Below, piece after piece: positions 1,027 to 15,087 of a stretch of DNA of 15,087 nt. This DNA is from a virus (lineage: Duplodnaviria; Heunggongvirae; Uroviricota; Caudoviricetes). The DNA is taken from positions 1-15,087 of the IMG/VR virus record IMGVR_UViG_2698536392_000024; one strand, 5' to 3'. The position numbers and the translations under genes were made by a program. Each line of letters opens with the position of its first letter. Within the stretch, counting starts at the first letter, position 1. The notes beneath the pieces are model-generated. The model was not told the DNA's origin and ran no database searches. It saw only the letters and a list, made by a program, of their open reading frames with translations.

Positions 1027-1308
1027 TTACCGCCGTAACCGCTCCGGCTTCTTCCAGTGGTACGTGATTTTCTCCTTCTCCCGATACATCTCCACGCGGC
1101 GACGGTATGCCAGCAACTCAAGGACTCTGGTTCGTATGTTGCGCATATCCACGCCGTTAAGCTCAATACCATCACGGCGCATCACCTCAGCAACAACACG
1201 CGCATAATTTTCAGCGGTCATGCTGTCCGGTTGCGTGCCCTGTTCGTCATGCTGCTGGCTGATTCCAGAGACGCGGCGGATTAATCCCAGTATTTCGGCT
1301 TCTGTCAT
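1027..1308 (-). CDS. Hypothetical protein (93 aa) immediately downstream of TerL
   Basis: ATG at 1308 with GAGG RBS 8 nt upstream; MTEAEILGLIRRVSGISQQHDEQGTQPDSMTAENYARVVAEVMRRDGIELNGVDMRNIRTRVLELLAYRRRVEMYREKEKITYHWKKPERLRR; no family recognised. Confidence 0.55.
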   Translation of the reverse strand: MTEAEILGLIRRVSGISQQHDEQGTQPDSMTAENYARVVAEVMRRDGIELNGVDMRNIRTRVLELLAYRRRVEMYREKEKITYHWKKPERLRR

Positions 1309-1321
1309 GCTGCTGACCTCA

Positions 1322-2215
1322 TTACACCCCGCTAAATTCTTCCAGTTTCTGGCGGTGGCTGTCGCTTATATCAAAAGCAAAATCCTCATGCTCTGCCTGG
1401 AATGTACCAAACGCCATCAGCGCCGCTACACTCGGGTCTATCTTGTTCGGTGATTTTTTCTTGTTCGGCTTGATATTGGCGTTCGCGTCACTCTGCATCA
1501 CGACGTTACTCATCGACCAGGACAACACCGGATCGCCACGATGCACAATCACCCTGCGGTTAACAAAAACTTCGAACGATTTCGCCGCCGGACTGAATCT
1601 GAGGTAGGTTTGCGGGAACGGCTCCACCTCAAAACCAGCCCCCTGTAATTGCGTTCTCAGGTGCGTGGCGTTCCACGTATCAAAGCCCACCAGCCTGATA
1701 TTAAATTTCTCCGCATCCTGCATGATGTCATCTCTGATCCGGTCGTAATCAATGCAGTCACCTGGCGTTGTGCGTATCCAGCCCGCTTTAGCCCACTGGC
1801 GATAGACAGCGCGGTTTTTATTGGCGGGGTTCTGTAGCTGGAACTCCGGCAGATAATGACGGGAAATCAGCATAATGGTTTTACCGACCGGAAAGGCATA
1901 GCACACGCTGGAAATATCGCTGGTTGATGATAAGTCCAGCCCCGCGTAACACTCCTGCCCGTGTAAATCTTCCTCCGTGAACGTTCCGGCACACTCAGCC
2001 CATGCGCCGTTACCCATCCACGGGGTAGCCCCCTGGCACCAGATATTAAATCGCTTTGTCATCATCTCCACCCATTGCGACGGAATACCCCGCGCTTTCT
2101 GGATGGTTGAGGCCAGTTTTTCACGATCCACGGAAACATCGATGTTAGGGTTAGCCTTTATCCACATCGCCGGATCATCAACCTCGTTTTCGTCGTCCAG
2201 CTCGTAAATCAGCAC
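1322..2215 (-). CDS. terL: Terminase large subunit, C-terminal nuclease part (frame 2); this frame is open upstream to about 2350
   Basis: Upstream in-frame translation ...RRLLFAITTSGSNVVSACKQHYDYCCQILDGEEVNDSIFVLIYELDDENEVDDPAMWIKANPN is TerL-like and contiguous with the ATPase part if 1 nt is restored. Confidence 0.85.
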   Translation of the reverse strand: MLIYELDDENEVDDPAMWIKANPNIDVSVDREKLASTIQKARGIPSQWVEMMTKRFNIWCQGATPWMGNGAWAECAGTFTEEDLHGQECYAGLDLSSTSDISSVCYAFPVGKTIMLISRHYLPEFQLQNPANKNRAVYRQWAKAGWIRTTPGDCIDYDRIRDDIMQDAEKFNIRLVGFDTWNATHLRTQLQGAGFEVEPFPQTYLRFSPAAKSFEVFVNRRVIVHRGDPVLSWSMSNVVMQSDANANIKPNKKKSPNKIDPSVAALMAFGTFQAEHEDFAFDISDSHRQKLEEFSGV

Positions 2216-2982
2216 AAAAATTGAATCGTTGACCTCTTCGCCGTCCAGGATCTGGCAGCAATAATCATAGTGCTGTTTACAGGCTGAAACGACGTTACTG
2301 CCCGATGTGGTAATGGCAAATAACAGCCTTCGGGACGTGCGCCCATCCCCAACTCAAGCGCGGAATAAACGCCGTTATCGGGGTGTAGGTGGTATTCGTC
2401 CACGATGGAAAGGCTTGGGTTTGTGCCCTCGATGGTTGCCGCTTTTGCTGCCAGCGGCTTTAACAGGCTGTTGCTTTTCGGGTGCATCACCTTGTGGGCC
2501 TGAATATTCACCCGCCTGCGTAACGGTCGGGATAAAAGGCACATCTGACGCGCATCATCAAAAACGATCCGCGCCTGGTCACGGCTCACCGCTGCGGTGT
2601 AGATATCCTGCTGCCCGTTCTCCATAATCAGAAACCAGTTAGCCAGAATCGCGGCGGTCGTGGATTTCGCATTTTTGCGCGGCACTTCGATAAAGGCGCT
2701 CGTGTATTTGCGCCGTCCGGTGGCCTTAACCTTAAAGCCGAGGATGCACGCAAAGGCGAACTGCTGCCACGGCTCCAGCTCAATGGGTCTGCCACGCATC
2801 GGCCCTTTTACGTGCGGGCACACCCTGGAAAAGGCAATAAACCGCTCCACAACCTCACGATCGAACGTATAAAGGGGGTTTTTAAGGTCCGAAAAGTACC
2901 GTTTAACGGCCTGTTTCAGCCGTTTACAGGCCGGAATTTTGCCCGTTTTTACGTCTTCTGCGTACTTATTCCAGGCGGTCAA
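2209..2982 (-). CDS. terL: Terminase large subunit, N-terminal ATPase part (frame 1); reads out of frame after about 2322
   Basis: Walker A-like VPRKNAKST and Walker B IVDEYH; after GMGARPEG the frame turns to junk (CYLPLPHRAVTSFQ...) while the adjacent frame continues protein-like; track start is a TTG. Confidence 0.85.
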   Translation of the reverse strand: MTAWNKYAEDVKTGKIPACKRLKQAVKRYFSDLKNPLYTFDREVVERFIAFSRVCPHVKGPMRGRPIELEPWQQFAFACILGFKVKATGRRKYTSAFIEVPRKNAKSTTAAILANWFLIMENGQQDIYTAAVSRDQARIVFDDARQMCLLSRPLRRRVNIQAHKVMHPKSNSLLKPLAAKAATIEGTNPSLSIVDEYHLHPDNGVYSALELGMGARPEGCYLPLPHRAVTSFQPVNSTMIIAARSWTAKRSTIQFLC

Positions 2983-13202: not shown

Positions 13203-13220
13203 TGTGTCATATGCTGCCCT

Positions 13221-13430
13221 TTACGCTGCCTTACCTGAATTAATGCGATCCCGGCTTTTAACCCATTCCATAACCTCGGACAGCAGCCAACCTACAGAAC
13301 GTCCCCCCAGATTAAGACGTGACGGAAAGCATCCTTTTTTCTCCAGTTCGTAGCGTGTAGTGCGGCACACTCCAGTTAACTTACGACATTCATCCTCACG
13401 GATTACGCGATCTTCATTTATTTCACGCAT
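13221..13430 (-). CDS. alpA: AlpA/Vis-family excisionase-like HTH transcriptional regulator
   Basis: 69-aa product MREINEDRVIREDECRKLTGVCRTTRYELEKKGCFPSRLNLGGRSVGWLLSEVMEWV fits the AlpA pattern. ATG at 13430 preferred over the track's GTG at 13517, which has no usable RBS spacing. Confidence 0.8.
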   Translation of the reverse strand: MREINEDRVIREDECRKLTGVCRTTRYELEKKGCFPSRLNLGGRSVGWLLSEVMEWVKSRDRINSGKAA

Positions 13431-13848
13431 ACAAAAACCTACATAAAAATTACGTATATAAAATTTTCTCTTAGCTGTAGATATATGAGATCGGATATTA
13501 CTTAGATTCTTTTTCACCTCTTAAATTAAAAACACAACCTTGCTAAAGGCTTTGTTCGCTAAGGTTCGTAGAAGCTCGTTAGTGTTTAAAATCGTGTCAC
13601 GAGTTTTTAAGCGACGCAACAAAAAATGTCGTCATTTGGCATAGCGTTTAAATTATCTCATTAAAAACAAATAGATAAGCCGTCAGGTGTTGGAACAATC
13701 AAGAAACATAGAATAAAAATTCAGAAGAAGATATTCCAATTTTTTCGATGGTTGACATATATAAAGCGAAGATATTTGCAGATATTTTCCGATATTCTAC
13801 GATTTATTCACGTCTGTAATCTCTTAAAGAAAAAACAGCCGTAATTTG

Positions 13849-15087
13849 TCAAGAGTTTTGGGTGCAAATTCGCGGGGTCATAACAACGATTTTTTCATCA
13901 TTGTTCTGGAGAAGCTCGAGACGGTCTACCCATAGATTAAGAGCATCACGTTTTGCATCAAGATAACGGGAGTGGTTATAGACTCGTTGCATCCCTGGCA
14001 TCTGGTGGGCTGTAAGCTGCTCGACAATATGCGGATCCACGCCTAAATCGTTCAGCATGGTTGTAAATGTGTGCCGGATATCGTGTAACGTCCAGGGGGC
14101 TTGATTAATTCGTTTGTGCGCTGTTCTTCCGTACTCTGCTACCGAAGATTGTCCTTTCAGTTCACCAAGCAATAAGCTCGTGTGTCTGTTCTGCTCCACC
14201 AGCTGCGTGACGAACGGCAAAATGTTTTCCGGTATTGGCCTGAATATGGCGACCTTCGTTTTGCTGTGCTCCTTCGGTACTGTCCAGAGCATTTCTTTAA
14301 AATCCCACTCCTGCACCTCAGAGCGCCTTAGCTCGGTGGTACGGCATCCAAAAACAATCAGGAGGCGAATTAGGGCGCTGTAGTATGGCGGGAATATTTT
14401 GTCATCCAGGGCGCGGAGTAATTCCCCAAGCTCCTTGTTTGTTAGTACGCGCTCGCTCACTTCTGCTTTTTTTCCCACATCACCGACAACCATATCATCA
14501 AGAACGTTGCTGATTGCGTATCGTCGTTTTCGGCAGTACTTAAGCGCCTGTTTGCATACCTGTAGCAAAAATCCGGCAGATACTGGGCTTCGCTTTGCCA
14601 TCTGGTCAAAACATGCCAACCAGTGCCGTAGCTCGCATTTTTCCAACGGCAAAGCGCCAATTTGGCTGATTATGTGTTTATTGATCCGGCTTTTCAGTGA
14701 TTCGTAGTCAGTGCGCTTTTCCTTTGCATACGATTCAAGCCAGTAAGTGAGCGCGTCCTTAACTGTCACGGGGGCTAACGCATCCTGTACAGCACGATTA
14801 AGCTCATAGCGCGGATTTTTCCCCTCAGCCAGCCAGGCGCGACACTGTGCTGCTTTTTCCCTGGCTGCTTTCAGGCTCAGATCGGGATAATTGCCCAGTC
14901 TCAGACGTTCCGGTGATACCTGCCTACCAGTTCCGGCCCTGTAAGTGAAATACCAGGTTAACAGGCCGCTGGTGGAATGTCTTACGCTAAGATTGCCACC
15001 GTCATTAAAAAAGGCGTTTTTTGTGGTTGGTGATCCGCTTAATTTTCGTAAAAGAGTGTCGCTAAGTCTATGAATTGCGCTGCTCAT
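13849..15087 (-). CDS. int: Tyrosine recombinase / phage integrase, P4-like family
   Basis: 412-aa ORF; C-terminal catalytic region with LHDIRHTFTT (HxxR) signature and downstream Tyr-containing segment; N-terminal arm-binding-like region. The start codon is the last 3 nt of the window, so the true N-terminus could lie beyond it. Confidence 0.9.
   Translation of the reverse strand: MSSAIHRLSDTLLRKLSGSPTTKNAFFNDGGNLSVRHSTSGLLTWYFTYRAGTGRQVSPERLRLGNYPDLSLKAAREKAAQCRAWLAEGKNPRYELNRAVQDALAPVTVKDALTYWLESYAKEKRTDYESLKSRINKHIISQIGALPLEKCELRHWLACFDQMAKRSPVSAGFLLQVCKQALKYCRKRRYAISNVLDDMVVGDVGKKAEVSERVLTNKELGELLRALDDKIFPPYYSALIRLLIVFGCRTTELRRSEVQEWDFKEMLWTVPKEHSKTKVAIFRPIPENILPFVTQLVEQNRHTSLLLGELKGQSSVAEYGRTAHKRINQAPWTLHDIRHTFTTMLNDLGVDPHIVEQLTAHQMPGMQRVYNHSRYLDAKRDALNLWVDRLELLQNNDEKIVVMTPRICTQNS

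Follow-up and report, generated by a model that had tools for sequence, protein, structure and literature searches.

The DNA analysed here, the 15,087 nucleotides at positions 1 to 15,087 of the virus record IMGVR_UViG_2698536392_000024 (Caudoviricetes; hereafter the window), raises the question of what kind of element encodes a phage head and no tail, and whether this particular copy can still move. An earlier note, made from the sequence without database searches, had proposed a capsid-forming, tail-less satellite in which an HK97-type head module is joined to a P4-like replication backbone. In order to answer the question we accepted Pfam domain assignments at their curated gathering scores, classified small open reading frames (ORFs) through PHROG and RNAs at Rfam gathering scores, and settled the identity of the element from an Escherichia coli genome collection, the PDB and the literature. 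It is very likely that the window comprises nearly all of a capsid-forming phage-inducible chromosomal island (cf-PICI) of about 15.1 kb, integrated in an E. coli chromosome at the yljB/clpS att site, and that this copy is probably defective. The element is not new; its class, its packaging module and its P4-type early cassette have each been described before.

The position of the element in the chromosome was established from complete genomes. The window is identical to the chromosome of E. coli 2012C-4227 (NZ_CP013029.1) save for one single-nucleotide polymorphism and one extra copy of a 132-bp tandem repeat, and the same element is found in three sister genomes, making four complete genomes that carry it at the clpS site. 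In NZ_CP013029.1 the flanking genes are clpS and clpA on one side and yljB, cspD and macB on the other; therefore, the sequence immediately beyond the window carries no tail or lysis module. Comparison of both junctions with the empty site of K-12, where the att core is at positions 512-529 of locus L003, gave an 18-bp core, ATGATA(G/A)ATAACTATCAT. Its clpS-side copy (ATGATAGATAACTATCAT) occupies positions 85-102, with chromosome to the left and element to the right, and the second copy (ATGATAAATAACTATCAT) lies about 184 bp past the end of the window at 15087 (locus L001). Because the junctions were compared with the empty K-12 site, the element can be said to start at about 103 and to have its int-side att site outside the window. 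The span between the two cores is about 15.0-15.2 kb and chromosomal, within the 10-18 kb of an att-bounded cf-PICI. A tRNA scan for the att target found none; the att site lies instead at the end of yljB, a small gene that encodes 25 amino acids and whose TGA stop is contained in the core, and integration restores the 3' end of the gene.

Next to the clpS-side core is a region of repeats (103-291) that probably represents an attP arm bound by integrase and AlpA. It contains two copies of ATTAACTACACC at 174-197 and CACGAACAA-type repeats at 202-239, and the same motifs recur beside int (locus L001, 23979-24110), which places arm repeats near both junctions. This arm region is 92% shared with a classical phage-inducible chromosomal island (PICI) that uses the same attB. 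At least 62 E. coli genomes have the same architecture, which occupies several att sites; six attB sites have been published for cf-PICIs (10.1101/2022.09.08.507074).

The gene content is that of a cf-PICI. Almost every credible gene is read from the minus strand; integrase, AlpA and a replication module, with a frameshifted replication gene, are found at one end by Pfam, and all eight cf-PICI head and packaging components are detected in the published order, with the large terminase (TerL) present solely as a frameshifted pseudogene. The major capsid protein (6505-7662, minus strand, as are all genes of this module) has an HK97 fold (Phage_capsid, 2e-61, residues 100-379) preceded by a delta-like N-terminal region, and over all 385 residues it matches PDB 9gyi, "Major head protein", with an E-value of 4e-253; it is 98.4% identical to the capsid protein of EcCIEDL933, the functional prototype of the class. 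It is followed by an S78 prohead serine protease (5892-6449 from the start chosen by PGAP, with an ORF reaching to 6563; Pfam 5.8e-48; 99.5% identical to EcCIEDL933), a portal (4679-5890; Phage_portal 2.5e-90; 99.0%), an HK97 gp7-like head closure or completion protein (4344-4682; Phage_HCP 1e-22; 48% to HK97 gp7 and 96.4% to EcCIEDL933), an HK97 gp6-like head-tail connector or adaptor (4051-4347; Phage_connect_1 3.2e-12; 99.0% to EcCIEDL933), an HNH endonuclease of the terminase-accessory type (3611-4051; Pfam HNH 9.4e-8; 38% to HK97 gp74 and 88.4% to EcCIEDL933) and a small terminase (TerS) of the P27/Terminase_4 type (2966-3322; Pfam 1.3e-23; 99.1% to EcCIEDL933). The TerL pseudogene (1322-2982) has its TerL_ATPase and TerL_nuclease Pfam domains on separate ORFs and is about 99% identical to TerL of EcCIEDL933. 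Pfam and PHROG searches of the window genes found no tail, holin or lysin family, and the flanking genes add none.

These results bear directly on the earlier note. Its capsid, protease, portal, adaptor, HNH, TerS, integrase, AlpA and D5/P4-alpha-like assignments are borne out above Pfam gathering scores, the absence of tail and lysis genes agrees with the searches, and gene content together with the match to EcCIEDL933 places the element in the satellite class that it named. It had listed translational-coupling overlaps, and these are exact (ATGA at 4679-4682, 4344-4347, 8999-9002 and 11342-11345, TGATG at 4049-4053). It had suggested that tail and lysis genes just outside the window would make the element an ordinary prophage; the sequence there consists of the housekeeping genes clpS/clpA and yljB/cspD. 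The comparison with an empty site that it had proposed found the 18-bp core at both junctions and K-12 empty. Its start of the element at 1027 was mistaken, as the att core at 85-102 leaves about 920 bp of element DNA before that position. Its description of the head genes as a circular permutation of the HK97 order does not hold either: portal, protease and capsid run in reversed order, as do the two adaptor genes, which a rotation would not produce. Both of its calls for TerL and for an alpha-like primase-helicase stand in part. The two terminase domains and the helicase domains are there, the latter 51% identical to P4 alpha; the terminase gene is not intact, being split by a 1-base deletion, and the replication gene carries a 4-bp frameshift.

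The two lesions decide what can be expected of this copy. In TerL the ATPase (2209-2982) and the nuclease (1322-2215) fall on separate ORFs. When the gene is aligned with its intact counterpart of 1662 nt in O157:H7 F3113, one G proves to be missing (GGG to GG) at about 2329, immediately ahead of the ITTSG motif; the resulting shift costs the ATPase about 38 in-frame residues, that motif among them. In the replication gene (9532-11345), a 4-bp GAGA deletion lies at 11194/11195, in codon 51. PGAP labels both genes "frameshifted". The TerL deletion is common to all four copies at the clpS site, each with the same PGAP label; the replication gene has the 4-bp deletion in two copies, is intact in one and carries an independent 1-base deletion in one, where a single G is missing from a G6 run (strain 90-3040; locus L009, 9700-11516). 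A shared TerL lesion combined with a varied state of the replication gene is what would be expected if TerL was lost in an ancestor and decay then progressed. With both genes frameshifted, the copy is probably unable to package or replicate itself. Excision and capsid production may still be possible, whereas packaging of DNA should not be, and replication is probably inefficient. We regard it as a probably decaying and immobile example of a well-studied kind of satellite.

Could the copy nevertheless be a fully functional cf-PICI, with frameshifts that are sequencing or assembly errors, or that are tolerated, for instance through a split TerL and an N-terminally truncated helicase re-initiated at the GTG at 11139? 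Outside the two lesions no ORF is disrupted, and each is 96-99% identical to the working prototype; the TerL lesion sits in a short homopolymer, the upstream TerL ORF has a GTG (2215) overlapping its stop, and a 535-aa ORF of the replication gene keeps every detected helicase domain. Nevertheless, four separate assemblies with differences elsewhere agree on the TerL deletion, a 4-bp deletion is atypical of homopolymer error, the ATPase has lost about 38 in-frame residues with its ITTSG motif, and mutation of terL in the prototype abolishes transfer. We therefore consider a functional element unlikely. Several points still weigh against a probably defective cf-PICI as we describe it. The four long-read assemblies come from one laboratory series and the frameshifts could be assembly errors; the TerL lesion is within a GGG run and the H4 primase lesion within a G6 run, and homopolymer error in long reads could conceivably account for such single-base lesions. 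The decay of this copy is read from its sequence, the int-side att site itself is absent from the window, and the position of cos, the RNA-based immunity and the role of PerC, all discussed below, are inferred. Finally, the N-terminal 160 amino acids of the replication protein contain no recognised primase domain, so "primase" is here an annotation and not a finding.

Two further explanations concern the class of the element and not its state. If the window were the remnant of an ordinary HK97-like prophage from which the tail, lysis and lambdoid regulatory genes had been deleted, the homology of its head and packaging proteins to HK97 gp2, gp3, gp7 and gp74 would be accounted for. The identities to HK97 are only 25-48%, however, and the gene order differs; intact att repeats bound an element with a PICI-type int/alpA/rep module, the element matches one experimentally shown to be a satellite, and the same architecture is repeated at several att sites in those 62 or more genomes. 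We judge this explanation very improbable. A strict P4-like satellite, which would remodel helper capsids through Sid and Psu and use the helper terminase, would explain the P4-type iterons, the alpha-like helicase, the CI/C4 and seqA/isrK RNAs and the Vis-like AlpA. Against it stand the capsid, portal and terminase genes of the element and the lack of any sid, psu, delta or epsilon homologue in the window, and its probability appears to be close to nil unless highly divergent counterparts of Sid and Psu are hidden among the small ORFs.

The early region of the element can be compared with the P4 model. The tyrosine integrase (13849-15087, minus strand; Pfam Arm-DNA-bind_3 and Phage_integrase) has an arm-binding domain, and the window ends at its start codon. 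The AlpA-family regulator or excisionase (13221-13430, minus; Phage_AlpA 1.5e-15) is 45% identical to P4 Vis. An isrK-type RNA (12313-12388, minus; RF01394, 69 bits against a cut-off of 50) corresponds to the P4 seqA-like leader with its intrinsic terminator, and a C4, or P4 CI-type, immunity antisense RNA (12204-12291, minus; RF01695, 72.6 bits against a cut-off of 45) follows it. P4 itself has C4 and isrK matches in the same order upstream of alpha, with 74.9 bits for C4, and both profiles have been reported to match Gram-negative PICIs as relatives of CI and seqA (PMC10111431). Promoter and terminator scans place a promoter-like site at 12424-12395, before the isrK RNA, and the isrK terminator at 12335-12317; as a lead, the two would fit premature termination in the style of P4.

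The replication pseudogene (9532-11345, minus) encodes a helicase annotated as "primase family" with D5_N, DUF5906 and Pox_D5 domains. Residues 145-595 of its intact form, the two-thirds devoted to helicase and origin binding, are 50.7% identical to residues 320-771 of P4 alpha, and a domain search detected no Zn-ribbon/Toprim primase domain in the protein. Directly after the gene is a putative replication origin (9297-9517), in which seven exact copies of the octamer TGTTCACC, in both orientations, surround an AT-rich core. The octamer occurs nine times in the window against 0.6 expected and is identical to the "ori type 1 repeat" annotated in the P4 record, in agreement with the P4-type iteron origin of the earlier note. 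A literature search on the octamer returned primer noise only, and the annotated P4 repeats were used instead; a function as origin is suggested by the precedents of P4 and PICIs.

The P4-like wiring that the earlier note had singled out is thus present, together with C4 and isrK RNAs that the note did not mention, and this wiring is not distinctive: the same early module is found in classical PICIs, including that of strain SA53-3 at the same attB, and it is already in print. Homology of Int, AlpA and Pri-Rep to P4 was addressed in the PICI paper of 2018 (PMC6092414), and the cf-PICI paper reports int, alpA and rep as common to cf-PICIs and classical E. coli PICIs (10.1101/2022.09.08.507074). 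Relatives of the 1.9-kb regulatory segment are found in 1719 of 5426 E. coli genomes. Since the module also occurs in the classical PICI of SA53-3 and the prototype cf-PICI carries a different replication protein, the early region can be regarded as a swappable cassette.

The remaining genes of the early region are small. A YlcI/YnfO-family ORF (12693-12872; PGAP; phrog_949, 3.6e-27) is the sole credible gene on the plus strand; all others here are on the minus strand. They include an Icd-like small protein, encoded next after the two RNAs (11961-12149; PGAP and PHROG matches), with weak similarity to the ORF of the P4 cI region, a 106-aa ORF (11648-11968; phrog_15327, 4e-70), a DUF4222 protein (11342-11641; Pfam 3.8e-15), an 81-aa ORF (8999-9244; phrog_1231, 5e-50), a single-strand DNA-binding protein (SSB; 8592-9002; Pfam 1.2e-15) and a PerC-family transcriptional activator (8309-8581 from the PGAP start; Pfam PerC 4.7e-43). 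The longest ORF of the regulatory region, 323 codons at 12239-13210 on the minus strand, was rejected as spurious: its composition is aberrant, and it overlaps both RNAs (C4 and isrK) as well as the YlcI/YnfO gene of the plus strand. Between the isrK leader and the YlcI/YnfO ORF, a palindromic pair, ACTGGATTCCAGTATA and TATACTGGATTCCAGT (12582-12672), overlaps divergent promoter-like hexamers and looks like an operator. PGAP also annotates a 126-nt partial pseudogene for "trigger factor" at about 8227-8352 (locus L001, 17095-17220), overlapping the 3' region of perC, probably as an artefact of annotation.

Between perC and the capsid gene is a 74-aa ORF (7959-8183, minus; phrog_1957, 9e-42) flanked by two terminator-like hairpins. 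The hairpins, at 8302-8285 and 7948-7931 on the minus strand, are near-identical and consist of AGCCGGAG(A/C)AATCCGGCT followed by a T-run; their position suggests that they insulate the late operon from its early counterpart. Two other small ORFs belong to the packaging end of the element, namely a 60-aa ORF overlapping the 3' end of the HNH gene (3445-3627, minus; phrog_3173, 1e-34; annotated by PGAP) and a 93-aa ORF downstream of TerL (1027-1308, minus; phrog_1561, 6.6e-57), which is 87% identical to an EcCIEDL933 ORF in the same position. These remaining small ORFs match only PHROG families that have no assigned function, none of them a tail, holin or lysin family. No ORF of the window could be matched to gene "1792" of the prototype paper.

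The cos site is probably located in the 122-nt gap between HNH/orf60 and terS (3323-3444, minus). This placement agrees with HK97, where cos lies between HNH and TerS, and a G-run (3419-3430) followed by a TTCA..AC motif (ACCGACCGCCTCCTCAAA, 3371-3388) is similar to the last 50 nt at the right end of HK97 and to the end of LR881103.1. The latter was the sole informative match among phage records, and its ends may be arbitrary. This particle-derived record of 16,548 bp ("Escherichia phage vB_KppS-Ant") was deposited as a phage from an induced prophage, yet has the architecture of a cf-PICI; its int, primase, capsid through HNH, and TerS/TerL products are 38-84% identical in amino acid sequence to those of the window, and after TerL it has a 765-aa ORF annotated as tape measure protein.

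Beyond the 93-aa ORF, a non-coding terminal segment of about 735 bp (292-1026) contains degenerate repeats and part of the 132-bp tandem repeat. The latter (about 728-1034) is present in 2.3 copies in the window versus 1.3 in the four otherwise identical complete genomes, and its final, incomplete unit runs into the 3' end of the 93-aa ORF. The segment holds degenerate TNATCATCTGCGTGGT... repeats and CCCCCAATGGGGG hairpins and is conserved at 70-94% DNA identity in elements of the EcCIEDL933 type. Three candidate ORFs, 384-614 and 434-586 on the minus strand and 459-752 on the plus strand, were rejected as coding: they match no family or PHROG, and none stays open in either EcCIEDL933 or the F3113 element. 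We think it quite unlikely that the segment is a cis element with a function, or a locus for an untranslated RNA, that has not yet been described in cf-PICIs; as such it could act in packaging, in terminating late transcription or in insulating clpS. It is likewise quite unlikely that the lineage has domesticated the element, keeping it immobilised for its intact capsid genes or its PerC regulator.

Published work on relatives allows the operation of an intact element to be outlined. A helper phage would activate alpA, whereupon AlpA and Int would excise the element and the early operon would be switched on. This operon opens with the P4-type isrK/seqA-like leader and the CI/C4 RNA, and in the quiescent state these two would probably cause premature termination. 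The D5/P4-alpha-like helicase would bind the TGTTCACC iterons just downstream of its own gene and replicate the circle. Expression of the late operon would then supply the HK97-fold capsid protein, the protease and the portal for a small T=4 head, into which HNH, TerS and TerL would load the 15-kb genome after cutting cos, probably in the gap between HNH and TerS. The head-closure and connector proteins would complete the neck, to which free siphovirus tails of the HK106/HK97 type could dock. Helper induction, small capsids of the element's own and tail-dependent transfer have been demonstrated in EcCIEDL933 and are here read from the genes; as TerL is broken, no transfer is predicted for the copy in the window.

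The window is a textbook case of a described satellite family, and its significance lies chiefly in correct annotation. It illustrates the early module of the family as a swappable PICI/P4-type cassette. The two inactivating frameshifts, which were missed when the sequence was read on its own, shift the prediction from a mobile satellite to a probably stranded copy, and decayed copies of this kind inflate cf-PICI census counts in genomes of Shiga toxin-producing E. coli.

Among known systems, HK97 shares with the element the HK97-fold capsid protein, S78 protease, portal, gp6- and gp7-like adaptors and an HNH-dependent TerS/TerL, and homology was confirmed for portal, gp7, HNH and TerL. The head and packaging proteins are only 25-48% identical, and the order differs: HK97 has TerS, TerL, portal, protease, capsid, Ad1 (gp6), Hc1 (gp7), tails and HNH, whereas the window has the standard cf-PICI order of capsid, protease, portal, Hc1-like, Ad1-like, HNH, TerS and TerL. 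The capsid is T=7 in HK97 and T=4 in the prototype EcCIEDL933. The contiguous tail, lysis and lambdoid regulatory modules of a temperate HK97-like prophage are absent from the window. Satellite P4 resembles the element in a different set of features. Its TGTTCACC iterons are identical, its alpha protein is 51% identical over the helicase and origin-binding part, and it shares the layout of Vis/AlpA, seqA(isrK)-like leader, CI(C4) RNA, small ORFs, helicase and iterons. Its Int is of the same arm-binding type and 23% identical. P4 has two iteron clusters, ori and crr, and the window one; P4 alpha has a Zn-ribbon/Toprim primase domain that the replication protein of the window lacks; and the element, unlike P4, encodes its own head and terminase. 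A tblastn search with the P4 proteins against the window matched int, alpha, the cI-region ORF and vis only, with no homologue of sid, psu, delta or epsilon, which is why the element cannot be called a P4-like satellite.

Classical Gram-negative PICIs are closer in their early region. They have an iteron origin 3' of the replication gene, as in the window, and their induction depends on AlpA (PMC6092414). The classical PICI of SA53-3, of the EcCICFT073 type, shares the int-alpA-YlcI-Icd-DUF4222 early module at about 90% DNA identity, the same attB and the same arm repeats. This PICI (NZ_CP076279.1; locus L010, 2977-17390) is capsid-less and carries a DUF927 replication protein, ProQ/FinO, DUF1441 and only TerS. 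Genes for capsid, protease, portal, adaptors and TerL are missing from classical PICIs, which use helper capsids (PMC10085698), whereas the window has a portal and both adaptors, which are "forbidden" in the PICI model.

The closest relative is EcCIEDL933 of E. coli O157:H7 EDL933, with which the element is collinear from int through the 93-aa ORF after TerL. The packaging and capsid proteins are 88-99.5% identical, both elements carry SSB, PerC and the small ORFs, and both are about 15 kb long and have no tail or lysis genes. In EcCIEDL933 each packaging gene is needed for transfer, which a terL mutation abolishes; of the phage genes, those for the tail are required and those for the capsid dispensable, and induction depends on alpA (10.1101/2022.09.08.507074). 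Its capsid has T=4 symmetry and a diameter of 47.5 nm, tail-less capsids filled with DNA are released, and the adaptor and connector determine tail specificity, the EcCIEDL933 pair selecting HK106 tails (10.1101/2025.02.11.637232). The two elements differ at the early end, where Int is 77% and AlpA 66% identical. The attB is phoQ/roxA in EcCIEDL933 and yljB/clpS in the window; the replication protein has a DUF927 domain in the former and D5_N/DUF5906/Pox_D5 domains in the latter; and EcCIEDL933 has no C4 or isrK match at the Rfam gathering score. Finally, TerL and the replication gene are intact in EcCIEDL933 and frameshifted in the window.

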